Shown: positions 16,745 to 38,826 of the stretch, piece after piece | How the letters are laid out: each line of letters opens with the position of its first letter | Position numbering within the stretch: the first letter of the stretch is position 1 | Virus record (IMG/VR): IMGVR_UViG_3300045988_145635 | Origin: a virus | Taxonomy: Duplodnaviria; Heunggongvirae; Uroviricota; Caudoviricetes | Direction: 5' to 3' (one strand) | Length of the DNA stretch: 64,000 nt | Translations under genes and position numbers: made by a program | The notes under the pieces: model-generated | What the model was told of the DNA's origin: nothing | The model's database searches: none | The model's input: only the letters and a program-made list of their open reading frames with translations

Positions 16745-16798
16745 CGGTTGTTAGTGCATATGCATTGACCGTCTTTTCGTAAGCAATTCATGTAACTA

Positions 16799-27907: not shown

Positions 27908-28064
27908 CCCGTCTCCTTTATTTTAATTTGCGCAATTGTCGCCTTGTAGTGTACTCCAGCTACGACATTTAATCATTTATGAGAAATGCTGTTATCACAT
28001 GGCAGACATAAGGCCATTTTGTTACTATCAAGCCCCTTTTCACTACAAAGAAGTAATGCCTACT

Positions 28065-30098
28065 ATGACCCAAGTCGCGAAGAAAATTCTGGTGACGTGC
28101 GCGCTGCCGTACGCTAACGGCTCAATCCACCTCGGCCATATGCTGGAGCACATCCAGGCTGATGTCTGGGTTCGTTACCAGCGAATGCGCGGCCACGAGG
28201 TTAATTTCATCTGTGCCGACGATGCCCACGGTACGCCGATCATGCTGAAAGCGCAGCAGCTTGGTATCACACCGGAGCAGATGATTGGCGAAATGAGTCA
28301 GGAACACCAGACTGATTTCGCAGGCTTTAACATCAGCTATGACAACTATCACTCGACGCACAGCGAAGAGAACCGTCAGTTGTCTGAGCTTATCTATACT
28401 CGCCTGAAAGAGAACGGTTTTATTAAAAACCGCACTATCTCTCAGTTGTACGACCCGGAAAAAGGCATGTTCCTGCCGGATCGTTTTGTAAAAGGCACCT
28501 GCCCGAAATGTAAAGCGCCAGATCAATACGGCGATAACTGTGAAGTCTGCGGCGCAACATATAGCCCGACTGAATTGATCGAGCCGAAATCGGTGGTTTC
28601 TGGCGCTACCCCGGTAATGCGTGATTCCGAACACTTCTTCTTTGATCTGCCTTCTTTCAGCGAAATGTTGCAGGCATGGACCCGCAGCGGCGCGTTGCAG
28701 GAGCAGGTGGCGAACAAAATGCAGGAATGGTTTGAATCCGGCCTGCAACAGTGGGATATCTCCCGCGATGCGCCTTACTTCGGTTTTGAAATTCCGGACG
28801 CGCCGGGCAAATATTTCTACGTCTGGCTGGACGCGCCGATTGGCTACATGGGTTCCTTCAAGAATCTGTGCGACAAGCGCGGCGATACCACCAGCTTCGA
28901 TGAATACTGGAAGAAAGACTCCACCGCCGAGCTGTACCACTTCATCGGTAAAGATATTGTTTACTTCCACAGCCTGTTCTGGCCTGCCATGCTGGAAGGC
29001 AGCAACTTCCGCAAGCCGACCAACCTGTTTGTTCACGGCTATGTGACAGTGAACGGCGCGAAGATGTCCAAGTCTCGCGGTACCTTTATTAAAGCCAGCA
29101 CCTGGCTGAATCATTTTGACGCCGACAGCCTGCGTTACTACTACACTGCGAAACTCTCTTCGCGCATTGATGATATCGATCTCAACCTGGAGGATTTCGT
29201 TCAGCGCGTGAATGCCGATATCGTGAACAAAGTGGTTAACCTGGCCTCCCGTAATGCAGGCTTTATCAACAAGCGTTTTGACGGCGTGCTGGCAAGCGAA
29301 CTGGCTGACCCGCAACTGTACAAAACCTTTACTGATGCCGCTGAAGTGATTGGCGAAGCATGGGAAAGCCGCGAATTTGGTAAAGCTATCCGTGAAATCA
29401 TGGCATTGGCTGACCTGGCTAACCGCTATGTCGATGAACAGGCTCCGTGGGTGGTGGCGAAGCAGGAAGGGCGCGATGCCGATCTGCAGGCGATTTGCTC
29501 TATGGGCATTAACCTGTTCCGCGTGCTGATGACGTACCTGAAACCGGTACTGCCGAAACTGACTGAACGTGCAGAAGCATTCCTGAATACAGAACTGACC
29601 TGGGATGGTATCCAGCAACCGCTGCTGGGCCATAAAGTGAATCCGTTCAAGGCACTGTATAACCGTATCGATATGAAACAGGTGGAAGCACTGGTGGAAG
29701 CATCCAAAGAAGAAGTGAAAGCCACAGCCGCACCGGTAACTGGCCCACTGGCTGACGACCCGATTCAGGAAACCATCACCTTTGACGACTTCGCCAAAGT
29801 TGACCTGCGTGTGGCGCTGATTGAAAACGCGGAGTTTGTTGAAGGCTCTGACAAACTGCTGCGTCTGACACTGGATCTCGGTGGGGAAAAGCGTAATGTC
29901 TTCTCAGGCATCCGTTCTGCTTATCCCGACCCACAGGCATTGATTGGTCGTCACACCATTATGGTGGCTAACCTGGCTCCGCGTAAAATGCGCTTCGGTA
30001 TCTCCGAAGGCATGGTGATGGCTGCTGGCCCCGGCGGGAAAGATATCTTCCTGTTAAGCCCGGATGCTGGTGCTAAACCTGGCCACCAGGTTAAGTAA
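28065..30098 (+). CDS. metG: methionine--tRNA ligase (host-type)
   Basis: 677-aa protein from [25 protein letters not shown] to the C-terminal tRNA-binding domain; essentially identical to recalled E. coli MetG with a handful of substitutions; HIGH and KMSKS motifs present. Confidence 0.97.
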
Positions 30099-30117
30099 TT
30101 AAACAACCTCTGTTCGC

Positions 30118-30146
30118 AATGCCCGGCAACACGCTGGGCATTTTCA
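30118..30146 (+). terminator. metG terminator hairpin
   Basis: AATGCCCGG-loop-CTGGGCATTTT immediately after the metG stop. Confidence 0.55.
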
Positions 30147-30181
30147 TATAGACACAATCCCTTCTGATTTACGCATACCCT

Positions 30182-30247
30182 AAAACAATTTGTTTTCTGC
30201 CTTTTGTTAATTGAGATAATAAGCCACATAAGAAAACAAATTGTTTC
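30182..30247 (+). promoter_or_regulatory. class A extended module
   Basis: AAAACAATTTGTTTTCTGCC ... AGAAAACAAATTGTTT ending a few nt before ATG 30251; marks resumption of phage-type sequence after metG. Confidence 0.55.
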
Positions 30248-30250
30248 GGA

Positions 30251-30559
30251 GTGGTTGAAATGTTGAACATTACCCAAGCCTACCAGGTGGCATTGATCAG
30301 TTCATCTCATACATCAGAGGAAGATGCTCGTCGATTCATGATCGCAAGCAATGAGCTGGATTGGGTTTCGCAAATTGACGGCGGTTGTATTGTCCACGCC
30401 GGGTTACAGGATGATGTCTGGAAAGACGACTTGCGTCGATATGGTATATCCGAAGGCGCGATTGCTAACATTCAGAAAGTACTTGATGTAGGCTTTGACT
30501 CTGTACATTTTGATTGTGGTGCGCCGGTCGTTGAAGGGCTTGAGTGCTGGAACTGGTAA
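30251..30559 (+). CDS. hypothetical protein
   Basis: 102-aa ORF directly downstream of a class A module. Confidence 0.5.
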   Translation: MVEMLNITQAYQVALISSSHTSEEDARRFMIASNELDWVSQIDGGCIVHAGLQDDVWKDDLRRYGISEGAIANIQKVLDVGFDSVHFDCGAPVVEGLECWNW

Positions 30560-30604
30560 CAGATATTAAAGCATTGGTAGTTTGTTTTTAGGATTATCAA
30601 AGAA

Positions 30605-31339
30605 ATGAAAAAGTTGAAAAGTTTAGAAATCCCTGGGACTGGTTATAAATTCTTTATGGACAACGCGGAGTGTGCACCTAACGCGTTGGAAAAAATACAA
30701 AGTCTTATCAACAGCCTTACTGAAGAAGCGAAAGAACTGAAGAGCGAGGCGACAAAGGACAATACAGCTAAAATCCAATGCTTAAATCTCGTTTCTTATT
30801 GTTTATATCAAGTGTCCAAGACACTGATTAAAGGCAATATCTATTACGACGATGAAGACACCTCGACACCTGAAGAAAAAGATAGCGATGAAGAACTCTA
30901 TGAAGATATCTCTACTAGTGCGGGTCACGCTGCCTTCGATGCTATGGGTAAATCGTCAGGCATCAGATCATTTGTTGAACAGAACAATTCGACAATAATG
31001 ATTGAGTACTGTGAACAAACAAGCTCCAAGGCCATACATGTTCTTCACGATGTTGCTGCAGGGGTTCGCTGTGAGGCTGAAGCGGTCAGAAAAGATGTAT
31101 TTGGTGCAGACAGTAATACCGTGAAAGCGTTCATCAACAGTGCTCTGCTAAATTCTTACTCAAACCTTATCGTCAATGCGGCACTATGCGCAAATTCTGG
31201 TGAAGAACACATTGTCATAACCGAAACCAAATATGAGCATCAACAGTCACCAACCATAGAAGAGGTAACTGCATTGGCTATCAAACAGGCGAGTGAAATT
31301 AGTGATGAAATTCTCTCTCTGCTAAACAAAACTAAGTAA
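30605..31339 (+). CDS. hypothetical protein
   Basis: 244-aa ORF with plausible ribosome-binding site. Confidence 0.5.
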   Translation: MKKLKSLEIPGTGYKFFMDNAECAPNALEKIQSLINSLTEEAKELKSEATKDNTAKIQCLNLVSYCLYQVSKTLIKGNIYYDDEDTSTPEEKDSDEELYEDISTSAGHAAFDAMGKSSGIRSFVEQNNSTIMIEYCEQTSSKAIHVLHDVAAGVRCEAEAVRKDVFGADSNTVKAFINSALLNSYSNLIVNAALCANSGEEHIVITETKYEHQQSPTIEEVTALAIKQASEISDEILSLLNKTK

Positions 31340-31446
31340 AACATTGATAATGGCGGTCACAATTTGATTCTTTTCTATAAGAATCCGTTGATCGCCACTA
31401 CTCCCCTTCCATGCCTGGAATCACATCCTTAAATATCAATAGGTTA

Positions 31447-31482
31447 CAGTTGTTTATACCAATAAGAAAACAACTGAATAAC
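31447..31482 (+). promoter_or_regulatory. class A motif, split-palindrome variant
   Basis: CAGTTGTTT-N11-AAACAACTG inverted repeat including CCAATAAGAAAACAA, placed at the start of the AC-rich ORF-free tract. Confidence 0.4.
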
Positions 31483-32337
31483 AGATCAACGAAACATCAA
31501 CGCTTTCACCCGATTTGGTCTAAAAAATTGACGTTTTCACACATCACTGCTTATACCCGTAATTCTACGCAGCAGACAGCGCCACAGCGTCCAATTTTCA
31601 CCACAGACGACCCAACACACTACCAACAAAAACACACGCTCAAAATCGTTCCCGTTGCGTTACATAACCATATAAACAACTTATTTTCAGGAATAACAAA
31701 ACAACTAAATAACACATATGCCATTCCCAAAACAACCAACCTCTTTATGGCAGGCTACCGAAAAGACCCACCTCTTCTTCCCAGGCTACCGGACAACCAA
31801 CCTAACTTTCACAGGCAATCCGAAAACATTCATACGCGCGATACCCACGACACGCCATTACCCAAACAACGAAGAAACACCTGAACCACTGAAACCCCAA
31901 CGAAGCCTGTTACCGCAAGGATTCTCTCAATCCCAAAAGACACGAAACATAACAATCACGGGAAACGCCATTACCCAATACACGAATAACTACAAAAGCC
32001 CTTCACACACTCCAGACAAACAACTCAAACACAATAACGAAAGGAATCGCCCACCTGCCATTACTCCATACACGGAGAAGAACAATCACCAAAACGACGA
32101 GAACACCCCATAGAAGAACCACCGCAAAACGAACGAAACCACATACACCGACAGAGAGAACAACACACCCAATTCACCAACAGAAATAGTCGCCGTATAG
32201 AACGTTCTGGAAGGAGTGAGCATTAACGCCTATAGAGAGGTTGAAACAGATAAAACACGAAGAAAACACAACATGTATAGCGAAGAAGCCAGGTATGTAT
32301 AAGTGGGGAGGGAAGGAGGGGTGTCGCCTCCTTTTTC
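31483..32337 (+). ncRNA. candidate long A+C-rich non-coding transcript (hypothetical)
   Basis: ~850 bp with strong depletion of G and T on the + strand and no credible ORF; begins after a class A-like motif and ends at a GGAGG-loop-CCTCC-TTTTT hairpin (32314-32337). Confidence 0.2.
32314..32337 (+). terminator. rho-independent terminator-like hairpin
   Basis: AGGAGG-GGTGTCG-CCTCCT followed by TTTTT. Confidence 0.5.
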
Positions 32338-32399
32338 GTATTTATTCAACTCCTGATTTTATCCCCCGTAACACCCCTACGGTCAGCCTTCGGTCCATA

Positions 32400-32540
32400 C
32401 AGGGAAAAGGTTGCATCCCGCTACAGAAACGGCTGGGTTGCCTTCGGGGAACGGCTGGGGATTTTCAGGGAAACGGTCGAGTTGCCTGTGTGGATTTCGG
32501 GAAAAGGCTCGATGCCGGTTCAGGAACGGTGGCGTACCGG
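32400..32540 (+). repeat. degenerate tandem repeats, about 6 units of ~20-23 bp (CAGGGAAA-CGG-CTG type)
   Basis: Successive units CAGGGAAAAGGTTGCATCC, ACAGAAACGGCTGGGTTGCC, GGGGAACGGCTGGGGATTTT, CAGGGAAACGGTCGAGTTGCC, CGGGAAAAGGCTCGATGCC, CAGGAACGGTGGCGTACCGG. Confidence 0.6.
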
Positions 32541-32853
32541 TATAGCGTGAGGGAGAGTTGCGGCTGTCCACCTGTAATGTGCGGGAAGAAGAGAGGCGCT
32601 CACGTGCAGGCGAACTTACTTACCGTTGGACTCCCTCTGAATGCCCAGCTACAGCGTAATTGTGCCAGACAGTCAGCGGGTCACAATCGATTTCAGTAGG
32701 TTTTCGGGGAGAGGATTATTCTGCCCACCAGCCACCTTCGGCCACTAAATCAGAATAATGTAAAAAGTGTACTCGGTACTGAACCTGAAAACTCACTGCC
32801 AAAACCACATTCACCGGAATAAAATCCTTTTTCGCCTGTGCGTTATTGCGATA

Positions 32854-32885
32854 ATAACACCAACAAGAAAACATGTTGTTTAAGG
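32854..32885 (+). promoter_or_regulatory. class A palindromic motif
   Basis: TAACACCAACAAGAAAACATGTTGTTTAAGG; upstream half conserved with 35007-35036. Confidence 0.5.
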
Positions 32886-32893
32886 ATTGCTTT

Positions 32894-33223
32894 ATGTTTG
32901 CAAATATCGACATCAACCAAATCAAGAAATTAACTCAAAAAGAGTTTGATCAGTTTTATGAGTTAGAAGGTTGGTCTTCCACTCTGATCAATTCGCGGTG
33001 GGTGCTTGAGCTGATGACTCGTGATGACGCACCTGCTTTGATGATTTGCGACATGGGTGAAGATGCTGACTTTATGGATATGAGCGAATTTTGTGTGGAC
33101 ACATACAACCGCAGCCAGAAGTACTACTTCACATGCGATAGCGAAAATGACGTGATTTCTAAGGTCTATCTTCACCTCGTCCAGCATTGGGACGTTCAGG
33201 AGTTTCTTGAAGTATTCGAGTAA
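32894..33223 (+). CDS. hypothetical protein
   Basis: ORF-track start 32873 lies inside the class A motif; moved to ATG 32894 which follows an AAGGA site. Confidence 0.45.
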   Translation: MFANIDINQIKKLTQKEFDQFYELEGWSSTLINSRWVLELMTRDDAPALMICDMGEDADFMDMSEFCVDTYNRSQKYYFTCDSENDVISKVYLHLVQHWDVQEFLEVFE

Positions 33224-33349
33224 CCCCAACCAAAGCCAGCATTGCTGGCTTAACTTAATCTGTAGCCGCAGGGAAGAACCTGCATATCGCCCATGCACCT
33301 GATCAATATGCTTTGTAGCCGTTTTCTTACTGGTATTATTTACGCCATT

Positions 33350-33370
33350 GAGAAAACAAGTTGTTTACGG
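33350..33370 (+). promoter_or_regulatory. class A palindromic motif
   Basis: GAGAAAACAAGTTGTTTACGG ending 8 nt before ATG 33378. Confidence 0.5.
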
Positions 33371-33377
33371 AGTTGTG

Positions 33378-33689
33378 ATGAAAAAATCATTGGTTCTTGG
33401 TCTGGACAAAGACCAGAAGAGAAAAGAGAAGCCTGCGCTGGTTGCTCAATTAACTTTGCTGGACATCGTTGCCAATGGAACCTCTATTCGTCTGTTCCGT
33501 GAAACGGCGGTGTCTTTCGATAAAAACACCTTTACTCGTTATGTAATGAATGTTCGTCGCCAGCGTGGAAAAGGCTGGGTGGCATTTCAAAGAATGTGGC
33601 CGGAACATCAGCTCGAACTGGCTTTGATGGAAGTTAACCGCGTGGCCCAGCAAGAAATTCAGAGAGCATCAGTGATGGCAATAGCCTGA
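33378..33689 (+). CDS. hypothetical protein
   Basis: Start at ATG 33378 after ACGGAG; 103 aa. Confidence 0.45.
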   Translation: MKKSLVLGLDKDQKRKEKPALVAQLTLLDIVANGTSIRLFRETAVSFDKNTFTRYVMNVRRQRGKGWVAFQRMWPEHQLELALMEVNRVAQQEIQRASVMAIA

Positions 33690-33723
33690 TAATGTGCAAG
33701 TGGTAATTAGTCGACAGTACGAC

Positions 33724-33753
33724 AGCCCCGCCATCCTTACGGGGCTTTTTTTG
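33724..33753 (+). terminator. rho-independent terminator
   Basis: AGCCCCG-CCATCCTTA-CGGGGCT followed by TTTTTTT. Confidence 0.7.
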
Positions 33754-33816
33754 TATTGTAAGTACATACTTACGATCATAGAATATAAAAATAACCAAAA
33801 CACTACGGAGAGTGAA

Positions 33817-34212
33817 ATGACCGTTAAACGCGAAAAACTGACAGTTGATGTTTACTATGCCTCTGAAACCGCCGAAGGTAAGAATGTGGCAAAAATCACC
33901 GTTGTTACGTACAACACCGAAACTGGCGCCGAAGTCCAGGCCAGTACGATCGTGCGTAAAGGTGATGCCTCCGGCGGCGAGTACGAGACTCAATACCAGT
34001 CTATTTTCGATGCAACTGACCCGCTGCTGCTGAAAATCGAGAACTACTTCCGCCAGGTTGATGAAGAGGTGTTTGAAACCATGATGAATATGGTTAACAC
34101 CGTATTCGCCTCCAGCCTGAATACCAGCACCACCTGGATTGGCCAGTACGGTCTGCGCATTACCTCTGGCATTCCTGCCGACACCTTAATCCCTGAAAGC
34201 GTATTCGCTTAA
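33817..34212 (+). CDS. hypothetical protein
   Basis: ORF-track entry 33694-34212 trimmed: its 5' part contains the terminator; ATG 33817 follows a GGAGAG site. Confidence 0.45.
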   Translation: MTVKREKLTVDVYYASETAEGKNVAKITVVTYNTETGAEVQASTIVRKGDASGGEYETQYQSIFDATDPLLLKIENYFRQVDEEVFETMMNMVNTVFASSLNTSTTWIGQYGLRITSGIPADTLIPESVFA

Positions 34213-34706: not shown

Positions 34707-34850
34707 ATGGGCGATTTCAAGAAACGCCTGAAGGAAAGAGCCGAGATGGTCAGAAAGCAAAACGCCTCTTCTGTCATCAGATACGCAAGGCAGTTTAGTC
34801 GCAACAACAAATCAGTTGAGGAAAAGATCCTTAGCGTAATCGTGCGATAA
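34707..34850 (+). CDS. possible small protein (47 aa)
   Basis: ATG 2 nt after the upstream stop; basic peptide; below the ORF-track size cutoff; followed by a hairpin. Confidence 0.25.
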   Translation: MGDFKKRLKERAEMVRKQNASSVIRYARQFSRNNKSVEEKILSVIVR

Positions 34851-34855
34851 TTATT

Positions 34856-34879
34856 AAGGCCACCAGCATTGGTGGCCTT
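34856..34879. terminator. terminator-like hairpin
   Basis: Perfect 10-bp stem AAGGCCACCA/TGGTGGCCTT with GCAT loop; a related AAGGCCA...TGGCCTT hairpin occurs at 22049-22071. Confidence 0.5.
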
Positions 34880-35006
34880 AAATGACCATCCTGTTTCCCG
34901 CAGGCTAAAACACCAACCTCTTACCTCCAGGCAACCGACAAACCCACCTGTTCCCGTCCGGCTACCGCAACTTTCCACTTTGACGCCTTATTCGTACAAC
35001 GATAAT

Positions 35007-35036
35007 TAACACCAACAAGAAAACAATTTGTTATTT
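35007..35036 (+). promoter_or_regulatory. class A palindromic motif
   Basis: TTAACACCAACAAGAAAACAATTTGTTATTT about 20 nt upstream of ATG 35054. Confidence 0.5.
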
Positions 35037-35544: not shown

Positions 35545-35568
35545 AGGGCCAGAAACGGCCCTTTCTCT
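35545..35568 (+). terminator. rho-independent terminator-like hairpin
   Basis: AGGGCC-AGAAAC-GGCCCT followed by TTCTCT. Confidence 0.5.
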
Positions 35569-35570
35569 AT

Positions 35571-35710
35571 AGCCACCAGCTGCCGCAGGGAAATTTTCAG
35601 AAACGGCAAGGAACGCATTCATGAGCCGACGGGAAACGGCCAGGATTTTTTCGGGAAACGGCTGCATTCGCCTTTGTGTAGAAAAAAACATCGGGAAGCT
35701 GGTGGAATCC
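35571..35710. repeat. GGGAAACGGC-type repeats enclosed by a 9-bp inverted repeat
   Basis: CCACCAGCT (35574-35582) and AGCTGGTGG (35697-35705) flank CAGGGAAATTTTCAGAAACGGC, CGGGAAACGGCC and CGGGAAACGGCTG units; same repeat family as 32400-32540. Confidence 0.55.
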
Positions 35711-37962: not shown

Positions 37963-38259
37963 TTATCGGACTGACTCTACAGCCTTACGATTGGTGTCAA
38001 AAAGCGCATCAACGAACAGCAATGAAGAGTTGTTCAATTCACATGGTTCATAATTTTCCACCTGTTCACATAGTTGAGCGGTCTTACCTATGTTTATCCC
38101 TAGTTTTACTGCTGCTGAAAGTTGAAACATGCAAACTGGAATATTCTGAGACGTTGAGCATACGTCATGCATCAGCGACTTAATAATTGCAATATCATCC
38201 TTTGCATTGGCTGAAATTGAGTAAACTAAAAATAATGATGTCAATAGTATCGATTTCAT
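37963..38259 (-). CDS. small secreted Cys-containing protein (paralogue B)
   Basis: Signal peptide MKSILLTSLFLVYSISANA; four cysteines. Confidence 0.5.
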   Translation of the reverse strand: MKSILLTSLFLVYSISANAKDDIAIIKSLMHDVCSTSQNIPVCMFQLSAAVKLGINIGKTAQLCEQVENYEPCELNNSSLLFVDALFDTNRKAVESVR

Positions 38260-38262
38260 AAC

Positions 38263-38826
38263 TCAAAAAGGTAAAATTCGTTCAACCCAATCGAAGAAAA
38301 CAAGAATTTTTCTGCCGTCTTTCAACTTAAGTGTGACTAGGCAGGCATCAACGCCATCTGACGTTCCCTCAATTTCGCGGCCGTCTGCCATGTAGACCCT
38401 TATAGATTGGCCGTTTTGATAAGCCTTGCGACATATCTTAAAAAAATCACGACGTGATGGCTGGTTGTCTACATAGTCAGGGTGTATTGTTAGTCTCCCT
38501 TTGAAATCGTAATCAATGCCATCAATTACGCCTGATTCAATTGTGCTAATGCGCTCAAGTGGGAGCCTTATACGATTTTCTTTGTCAAATGGAGTTGGAC
38601 AAAGGTCAACTTTGTTACGAGATGACATGAGACCATAAACGTACATGCAAAACACTTGGCCGTCTTCGAGAGTGACTCTTACAGGAAATTTAGCCCTCCG
38701 CCAGAAGAGCAAGGTGCGTTCAGCATGTTCGTAGTCTCGCGGCCATACTTCAGCCGGTATGCCGTAGGTGATATCTTTCGTCGTCATATCATTATAAAGT
38801 GGTTGGCAATATGTCCATTGTACCAT
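38263..38826 (-). CDS. hypothetical protein
   Basis: 187-aa ORF; alternative start at ATG 38787 would avoid overlap with the lipoprotein gene; its last 19 codons lie in the 52-bp repeat. Confidence 0.45.
   Translation of the reverse strand: MVQWTYCQPLYNDMTTKDITYGIPAEVWPRDYEHAERTLLFWRRAKFPVRVTLEDGQVFCMYVYGLMSSRNKVDLCPTPFDKENRIRLPLERISTIESGVIDGIDYDFKGRLTIHPDYVDNQPSRRDFFKICRKAYQNGQSIRVYMADGREIEGTSDGVDACLVTLKLKDGRKILVFFDWVERILPF

Follow-up and report, generated by a model that had tools for sequence, protein, structure and literature searches.

The DNA analysed here is a viral stretch of 64,000 nt (IMGVR_UViG_3300045988_145635; hereafter the window), and the element in question is a tract on its + strand, rich in A and C and poor in G and T, that a first-pass annotation had placed at 31390–32340. 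The tract lies in an intergenic region of ~1.5 kb without genes (31340–32895), the layout of which is fixed across relatives. The segment 31340–32400 was 97.5% identical to Escherichia phage Cyrano (OV696614), which is the SSU5-like phage-plasmid carried by E. coli LF82, and identity was ~70% with Salmonella phage SSU5 and 64–75% with Klebsiella phage-plasmids; on sequence grounds, the window is itself assigned to the SSU5-like phage-plasmids. The genes upstream of the tract vary by plasmid (methionyl-tRNA synthetase and MinD-like genes, type I restriction–modification with DUF262, NYN, ydfZ, umuDC, and others) and the downstream genes are conserved, the tract always being found between the variable upstream genes and a conserved repeat array with small genes. 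In most loci the nearest upstream gene is on the + strand. Genes annotated in this phage-plasmid include UvsW, UvsX/RecA, UvsY, a gp32-like single-stranded DNA-binding protein (SSB), and RNase H, with RepA ~33 kb distant.

Searches of PLSDB returned 833 plasmid records matching the tract region, most of them ~110 kb in size and non-mobilizable, from Klebsiella, Escherichia, Enterobacter, Salmonella, Citrobacter, and Cronobacter. The tract was present in 243 of 5,426 complete E. coli genomes (4.5%), every time plasmid-borne and never under a RefSeq feature. SSU5-type phage-plasmids are frequent in clinical Enterobacteriaceae, and their variable cargo, which includes defence genes, sits immediately upstream of the tract. 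In genome annotation the 1.5-kb gene-free region is left empty or is filled with spurious open reading frames (ORFs), and no curated description of the element or of the region was found in the portions of the literature that were searched. As a non-coding element the tract is real, widespread, deeply conserved, and unannotated, and it has an unusual property under selection, a + strand RNA that cannot base-pair; it is strand-specific and forms part of a 1.5-kb conserved control region of SSU5-type phage-plasmids.

For base composition, skew was computed in 100-bp windows, and A+C content in 600-bp and 200-bp windows over the 64 kb. Between 31400 and 32199, GC skew ran from −0.33 to −0.54 and AT skew reached +0.70, which bears out the strand bias reported for ~31390–32340. 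The borders given for it were too wide: the extreme part spans 31560–32200, and the final ~140 nt (32200–32340) are purine-rich, with a GC skew of +0.27. On the + strand, the core (31560–32200) is composed of A 0.402, C 0.326, G 0.125, and T 0.147; its 73% A+C is ~8 SD over the window mean and unique in the 64 kb, though its description as almost entirely A and C was overstated. The top 600-bp window (31583) reached 74% A+C, where the window-wide mean is 49.6% (SD 3.1%); nothing else in the 64 kb approached it, and the three most A+C-rich 200-bp windows all fall in the tract.

This composition was found across relatives, with 68–74% A+C over 600 bp in the ten loci detectable by blastn. More distant relatives were located via the downstream protein; in Pectobacterium Drgb1, Providencia pPROV236-2, and K. 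oxytoca pCAV1099-111 the layout is kept around a 600–700-nt tract of 70–72% A+C, the interior of which is not alignable, blastn giving only 32–42-nt shared motifs. A pattern scan of IMG/VR produced mostly chance matches and gained one additional lineage, L095, in which the pattern is retained (A 0.44, C 0.26, G 0.17, T 0.13). In AT-richer hosts A rises to 47–48% and C falls to 23–24%, while G (12%) and T (16–18%) remain low; because A and C shift with the host and G and T do not, depletion of G and T on the + strand is the conserved property. C/G ratios were 1.5–2.6 (2.6 in the window and 1.5–1.9 in the other lineages), and A/T was 2.4–3.2 in every lineage. The left and right anchor motifs lie 735–770 nt apart in enteric lineages and 632–837 nt apart overall, with tract lengths of 630–850 nt across relatives. 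Within the E. coli clade, segregating sites per site numbered 0.065 in the tract versus 0.145 in the adjoining array region. The phage phiKO2 and a Proteus phage have the downstream gene in common only, and the tract is absent from both.

The claim that the + sense RNA is unstructured held on folding. Among 639 200-nt windows of the 64 kb, the seven weakest folds all lie in the + sense RNA of 31501–32300, with energies of −11 to −20 kcal/mol where the mean is −51.6 (SD 9.1); the − sense RNA of the tract folds normally, because of G-U pairs. The whole unit folded no better than shuffles (z = +0.35). At its 3′ end, RNAalifold gave a weak consensus hairpin (−4.2 and −1.9 kcal/mol) whose covariation term was close to zero. 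The tract thus shows neither folding beyond shuffles nor covarying pairs, the marks of a structured RNA, and Rfam 15 gave no match at E ≤ 1 in 30000–34000 and none at gathering score in the whole window.

That the tract codes for low-complexity proteins rich in P/T/N/Q, one or two in number, as the annotation of CYRAN_103 in Cyrano has it, is scarcely credible, although ORFs 31411–31884 (157 aa) and 31718–32113 (131 aa) are both present and hypothetical proteins are annotated here in some records. Neither ORF matched a Pfam or PHROG family; all seven flanking genes matched PHROGs, with E values of 1e-49 to 1e-170. In an alignment of ten homologues only ~1/3 of indels were multiples of three, the long open frames of relatives differ in frame, position, and strand, and no 3-nt (codon) periodicity was detected in the tract. 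Repeats of 28 nt at the DNA level do not share a reading frame within the 31718 ORF, and the ATG of that ORF is absent from SSU5-type relatives. Depositor annotations conflict, with a + strand ORF in Cyrano (CYRAN_103) and a − strand ORF in SSU5, and PGAP leaves a 1.4–2.1-kb gap in every RefSeq plasmid examined, with no feature in any of the 243 E. coli genomes. On this evidence a protein-coding tract was rejected: the two ORFs are composition artefacts, as had been supposed, a conserved coding frame was looked for by homology and not found, and the tract remains unexplained by any annotated gene.

The features of the region, from left to right, are listed below.

31352–31396, + strand: composite hairpin/palindrome directly after the upstream stop codon, with arms GGCGGTCA/TGATCGCC and stem GATTCTT/AAGAATC (−19.1 kcal/mol, z = −3.8)
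31447–31476, + strand: split palindrome CAGTTGTTT (31447–31455) / AAACAACTG (31468–31476), containing AGAAAACAA (31465–31473)
31484–31502, + strand: two direct boxes, GATCAACG-N4-ATCAACG (GTCAACG in relatives), conserved from E. coli to Pectobacterium, Providencia, and L095
31528–31556, + strand: promoter-like element of A-tract, TTGACG, 17-nt spacer, and TTATAC; in the alignment the hexamers are conserved and the spacer varies
31560–32200, + strand: core G/T-poor, structure-free tract, delimited by composition, folding, and lack of conserved frame and periodicity
31654–31715, + strand: conserved island (alignment columns 740–800) with GTTGCGTTA(T/C)AT..., a degenerate AAACAAGTTGTTT palindrome, and a second AAAACAA half-site
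31727–31818, + strand: three tandem ~31-nt units, ACC(C/A)ACCTCTT-N5-7-CAGGCTACCG (repeat family D3)
31849–32079, + strand: dispersed 28-nt repeats, (A/C)(C/T)GCCATTACYCMATACACGGAGAAGAAC, with copies at 31849, 31962, and 32052 and a weak one at 31715 (repeat family D1)
32200–32304, + strand: purine-rich (GA) end, closing with an invariant TATAAG (32298–32303)
32305–32336, + strand: G-cluster GGGGAGGGAAGGAGGGG overlapping a terminator-like hairpin, GGAGG-GGTGTCG-CCTCC-TTTTT (32315–32336)
32363–32377, + strand: conserved C-block CCCCCGTAACACCCC
32402–32545, + strand: six ~22-nt direct repeats, G(G/A)AA(A/C)GG(C/T)..., G-rich on this strand
32850–32895, + strand: putative promoter/operator unit (TGCGATAAT ... 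AGAAAACATGTTGTTT) of the first downstream small gene, at the right end of the 1.5-kb region

The tract is therefore bounded much as had been proposed, by conserved control-like sequence on its left and a hairpin on its right, the split palindrome and the GGAGG/CCTCC-TTTTT hairpin being found at 31447–31476 and 32315–32336, respectively. The block at the left hairpin is conserved throughout and encloses a CTATAAG core that is invariant in all lineages; in Pectobacterium and L095 it is followed by a canonical T-tailed terminator. Within the split palindrome, AAGAAAACAA is invariant in the alignment. Of the two direct boxes, inverted GTTGAC-type copies lie near 31343, 31386, and 31528. The −10 hexamer of the promoter-like element is poor, lacking the final T, and a strict sigma-70 scan found no canonical promoter at the 5′ end of the unit in the window or in three relatives. 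In the conserved island, whose columns are among the most conserved of the alignment, the copy of the AAACAAGTTGTTT palindrome is perfect in SSU5-type relatives. The tandem 31-nt units are imperfect (65–74% identical), and the 28-nt repeats occur in 3–6 copies in enteric lineages, with related ACGTCA...GGAGAAAAC units in L095 and Pectobacterium. The right-end hairpin (−18.6 kcal/mol, z = −3.4) is present in all lineages but lineage-specific, with weak covariation support; a T-tailed terminator is clear only in the clade of the window and in Klebsiella and was not predicted in SSU5 or Pectobacterium.

The sequence AGAAAACAA in the split palindrome is half of a motif, AGAAAACAAnTTGTTT, that occurs on the + strand at 16798, 17527, 22119, 30231, 31465, 32866, 33351, 35018, and 45772. 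Elsewhere it lies 20–35 nt before the start codons of many small genes, often with (TGn)GATAAT ~10 nt upstream of it; at 31465 no ORF follows. The copies look like a regulon of promoter/operator (or 5′-UTR) units.

Expression in lysogens was taken from a published LF82 study that re-analysed RNA-seq data from five conditions, the values quoted here being those of the ten samples in its S1 Table (PMC9928086). The upstream gene, CYRAN_102, ranges there from 5.6 to 9.2 log2(fpkm+5), where fpkm is fragments per kilobase per million. CYRAN_103, which covers ~31450–31806 and hence the 5′ 360 nt of the unit, is listed at 2.32 (that is, zero) in LB and at most 4.27 elsewhere, corresponding to zero to ~14 fpkm over the ten samples, and at roughly 3- to 50-fold under CYRAN_105 and CYRAN_107 in samples where those rise. 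Because CYRAN_102 is high and CYRAN_103 near zero, the tract is silent in these samples of the plasmid state, and transcription that comes from the cargo ends at its left edge. Cyrano in LF82 is inducible with ciprofloxacin (PMC9928086). The idea of a discrete ~850-nt transcript was not borne out, given these lysogen values for CYRAN_103 and the failure to find a canonical sigma-70 promoter.

Untranslated, unstructured RNA with C well over G is the defining substrate of Rho. We tentatively read the tract as a giant, strand-specific Rho-loading (rut-like) insulator backed by a terminator hairpin, which we consider quite possible and the likeliest of the explanations weighed here. Such an element would act in cis on rightward (+ sense) transcripts. 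RNA transcribed across the tract would be untranslated, would be unable to fold for want of G and U, and would carry C well over G, and so would offer Rho an unusually long loading site. Rho, together with the hairpins at both ends, would stop transcription arriving from plasmid-state cargo genes or from leaky local promoters, and would thereby keep it from the G-rich iteron array and from the downstream small genes with the operator-like motif. What we infer here is that Rho loads on the tract, that insulation is what selection has favoured, and that a repressor controls the genes downstream.

The comparison with the best-known rut site is close in composition. Lambda rutA–rutB (NC_001416, 38236–38305) contains A 0.37, C 0.30, G 0.13, and T 0.20, and the 64 kb holds 422 windows of 70 nt that equal or exceed lambda in rut-likeness, of which 314 start in the tract; most of the remaining ones belong to a 150-nt mini-tract at 34800–34900. 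A rut site calls for at least ~70–80 nt of C-rich, G-poor, unstructured RNA, which the tract provides, and for RNA free of translating ribosomes, which accords with its lack of a conserved frame, start codon, or periodicity. Like lambda tR1 rutA–rutB, it is untranslated, unstructured, G-poor, and strand-specific, with C over G and a near-identical base composition, and in both cases a hairpin that could serve as a pause or termination point follows. Unlike the lambda site, the tract is ~9× longer, holds conserved repeat islands, and has control-like boxes of its own in front; its sequence similarity to rutA–rutB is not significant, and its Rho dependence is predicted only. Its functional likeness thus appears closest to a rut site, and membership in that class is not claimable. 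Position, orientation, and the step in the RNA-seq values all fit a one-way insulator. If the reading is right, the mobile element walls its exchangeable, constitutively expressed cargo off from its lytic genes and its repeats for replication or partition, and the tract would be a terminator module that is natural, portable, and orientation-specific.

The 31-nt unit recurs at 34900–34990 and in Pectobacterium (L014, 8040–8095), each time just past a terminator hairpin. The first of these places is a mini A/C-rich segment (34858–35010) with two or three units, located after a terminator hairpin and before the next promoter/operator unit; the stem of its terminator contains a Chi complement, and the same arrangement is present in Pectobacterium plasmid Drgb1 (L014, 8030–8095). 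Because it directly follows intrinsic terminators both in the mini-tract (34858–34990) and in the Pectobacterium counterpart, its placement suggests that the unit is a back-up termination module.

Several observations weigh against an insulator that works through Rho. Local alignment of the 31-nt units with lambda 38236–38305 was no better than with shuffles (p = 0.13–0.6), and YC dimers were not enriched beyond composition. A rut site needs no depletion of U, for which our explanation would be avoidance of structure through loss of A-U pairing, and 650–750 nt is far above the need of any described rut. A pure insulator does not account for the conserved 5′ boxes, the operator-like motif, the promoter-like element, or the repeat islands inside the tract. 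In the RNA-seq values the fall precedes or coincides with the start of the tract, CYRAN_103 beginning 110 nt past the upstream stop codon, and the left hairpin alone may do the insulating. Finally, in two loci (L004 and L009) the nearest upstream genes are oriented away from the tract.

A rival reading is that the tract specifies an early, repressor-controlled long non-coding RNA (from ~31465 or 31560 to 32336) that acts in trans in the lytic phase, as a lattice or decoy for a factor that binds single-stranded RNA, such as Rho, Hfq, or the phage's own gp32-like SSB. The unit begins with the operator-like motif of many small genes with no ORF after it, the −35 element and A-tract are conserved, the 3′ end falls at a hairpin that is T-tailed in two lineages, the length (630–850 nt) is conserved, the RNA is structure-free in the + sense only, and silence in lysogens is consistent with repression. 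We nevertheless think such an RNA unlikely: the sigma-70 scan of the + strand predicts no canonical promoter at its 5′ end, CYRAN_103 lies well below its operator-bearing neighbours CYRAN_105 and CYRAN_107 even when those are raised, no Rfam family matches, and candidate binding motifs (GGA, (ARN)n, AAYAAYAA, YC, and ACA) are not above composition in the E. coli, SSU5, and Klebsiella lineages, GGA also not being conserved in the Pectobacterium repeat units. Also doubtful, in our judgement, is that the G-cluster and iteron array (32305–32600) are a transcription-activated (R-loop-type) lytic replication origin, akin in its logic to ColE1 RNA II or phage T4 oriF/oriG, with the tract as an untranslated leader that, structure-free and Rho-accessible, would block firing by leaky transcription. 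For + sense RNA the array has the best RNA:DNA-minus-DNA:DNA energy of the window (−0.155 per step at 32397), four of nine + strand G-cluster matches fall at 32305–32321 and 32435–32460, one of them the sole match with a stretch of at least 40% G after it, and G-clusters come after the tract in other lineages too. The annotated UvsW, UvsX/RecA, UvsY, gp32-like SSB, and RNase H would suit such an origin, the role of UvsW and RNase H being drawn from annotation and the biology of T4; with RepA ~33 kb off a second origin is plausible, and silence in the plasmid state suits one used in the lytic phase only. Against it stand a terminator-like hairpin between tract and array, the lack of an adjacent initiator gene, a second copy of the array at 35552–35670 without a tract ahead, and a possible alternative use of the arrays as centromere or regulator sites. 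The tract itself was rejected as an R-loop former, its nearest-neighbour energetics being unremarkable (32nd percentile). The earlier alternative of an unwinding or nicking region likewise gained no direct support for the tract, which is not AT-rich and has ordinary energetics; the adjoining G-rich array, however, is the most R-loop-prone sequence of the window. In favour of an origin, RNA-based prophage origins are known in mycobacteriophages (PMC7157519).

A combination of these ideas, in which tract, G-cluster, and iteron array form a lytic R-loop origin gated by a Rho-loading leader, or, as a variant, the tract RNA is an unstructured decoy for Rho or another host factor that binds single-stranded RNA, appears decidedly improbable. 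In the gated version, Rho would clear away whatever leaky transcripts arise in the plasmid state, and induced read-through would lay G-rich RNA on the array and start replication, which the RNase H, UvsW, UvsX, UvsY, and gp32-like set would then handle. Were either version true, an unknown lytic origin of the SSU5-type family, or a new phage way with Rho, would be identified. An excess of A over T and of C over G on one strand is the type of skew made by C-to-T and A-to-G changes on the opposite strand, and the tract might accordingly be a weakly constrained spacer bearing the mutational footprint of − strand deamination while single-stranded, as in the vertebrate mitochondrial heavy strand. 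The type of skew agrees with this, the interior diverges enough to lose alignability between distant lineages, and substitution spectra, in which transitions dominate, give a polarised flux (16 changes toward G/T, 13 toward A/C) roughly at compositional equilibrium. We hold this to be highly improbable, however, since the skew profile has sharp edges and a plateau with no consistent gradient in ten lineages, on which ground a mitochondrial-type gradient was rejected. Genome-wide asymmetries in the window are all weaker than the skew, length, position, and repeat islands are conserved across lineages, polymorphism is below that of neighbouring non-coding DNA, and no lysogen transcription that could expose a strand is detected in the S1 Table samples.

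Other known systems were compared with the same region. The CsrB/CsrC (CsrA) and CrcZ (Hfq/Crc) sponge RNAs are, like the tract, long non-coding units with dispersed repeats, and the tract repeat AUACACGGAGAA resembles what we take to be the CsrA SELEX (systematic ligand evolution by exponential enrichment) consensus. Unlike these RNAs, the tract has no enrichment of GGA or, in the main lineages, of (ARN)n beyond composition, no hairpins presenting a motif, and no Rfam match, and it is silent in the plasmid state. A CsrA sponge was rejected on GGA counts (11 vs 7.4 expected, p = 0.115; z from −0.9 to 1.5 over six lineages) and on the near lack of hairpins; GGA is absent from several Pectobacterium repeat units. 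Decoys based on Hfq (ARN)n, Crc AAYAAYAA, MazF ACA, or YC dimers gained no support in the main lineages, none of these motifs being above composition there. For (ARN)n and AAYAAYAA this covers the E. coli, SSU5, Klebsiella, and K. oxytoca lineages; for runs of at least four ARN triplets, Pectobacterium (z = 3.0) and Providencia (z = 2.4) alone showed enrichment.

With the ColE1 RNA II and T4 oriF/oriG origins the region shares a promoter-like element several hundred nucleotides ahead of a G-rich, R-loop-prone segment, and genes for RNase H and a UvsW-type helicase annotated in the same genome. It differs in that the ColE1 RNA II leader is structured and the T4 leaders are short, whereas the tract is long and structure-free and an origin there is only proposed. 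Extrachromosomal mycobacteriophage prophages have RNA-based origins, and the account consulted describes their origin RNA as expressed in the prophage state, in contrast to the silence of the tract in the plasmid state (PMC7157519). The array at 32402–32545 resembles iteron origins and centromere arrays in its six direct repeats, ~22-bp spacing, and second cluster 3.1 kb off, and departs from them in having no rep or par gene beside it (repA is ~33 kb away) and no AT-rich unwinding element. The antitoxin RNA of a type III toxin–antitoxin system of the ToxI kind consists of near-identical ~34–36-nt tandem repeats directly upstream of a toxin gene; this candidate was rejected, as the tract has three imperfect 31-nt units only, no array found by Tandem Repeats Finder (TRF), and no gene before the iteron array.

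Four further candidates for the make-up of the tract were tried and rejected. A panhandle between CTTATACC (31549) and GGTATAAG (32296) had duplex energies no better than shuffles (p = 0.16–0.83). Antiterminator pairing with the G-cluster arm of the terminator, for which the best site in the window and in SSU5-type loci was the CCUCUUCUUCCC unit, was no better than in shuffled tracts (p = 0.18–0.53). As the source of the bias, a degenerate tandem array found no backing, there being no global periodicity and only a weak local ~31-nt signal, with nothing found by TRF. Similarity of the 31-nt unit to lambda rutA or boxA in sequence was not significant.

The two panhandle sequences are inverted copies at 31549–31556 and 32296–32303, on either side of the tract, and the sites change together: the E. 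coli/SSU5 pair is replaced by CTTATATC/GATATAAG in Klebsiella and by CTTACAC/GTGTAAG in K. oxytoca. The match breaks down in Pectobacterium, Providencia, and L095. The copies are possible sites of a shared DNA-binding protein. Read on the − strand, opposite to the flanking genes, 31760–31800 contains CGGTAGCCTG, the reverse complement of CAGGCTACCG, which matches 8 of 10 specified positions of what we take to be the RfaH ops element, GGCGGTAGnnTG.

The second cluster of ~22-nt repeats (35552–35670) has the same orientation as the first, and the Cyrano genome contains only these two. Together they bracket about six small genes of unknown function, with no rep or par gene adjacent, and could be iterons or centromere-like sites. 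In K. oxytoca pCAV1099-111 (L018, 5230–5400), a G/T-rich block of ~170 nt (A+C 0.33) directly follows the A/C-rich tract and stands in place of the short G-cluster; it contains four or more copies of TTTGGGAAG at a spacing of 17–27 nt.

Several 140–270-kb non-phage Klebsiella plasmids carry only the left third of the tract (~31455–31790), among them NZ_CP092407.1 (L025) and NZ_CP056568.1 (L026). The partial copy in L025 adjoins type I restriction–modification and DUF262 cargo, as in the phage-plasmid L009. These partial copies look like truncated phage-plasmid remnants and give no functional clue.

In the window, the variable cargo just upstream includes a full-length methionyl-tRNA synthetase gene (27936–30098, + strand; CYRAN_100 in Cyrano), which has a MinD/ParA-like gene and one for a LexA-like S24 peptidase beside it. 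The synthetase gene is weakly expressed in LF82, at 14–18 in the LB normalized-count columns of S1 Table (PMC9928086). The Chi octamer, GCTGGTGG, occurs in 8 copies per strand in the 64 kb, where ~1 per strand is expected by chance; examples lie at 32725–32732 (−), 34860–34867 (−), 35573–35580 (−), and 35698–35705 (+), and several copies fall within terminator stems or beside repeat arrays.

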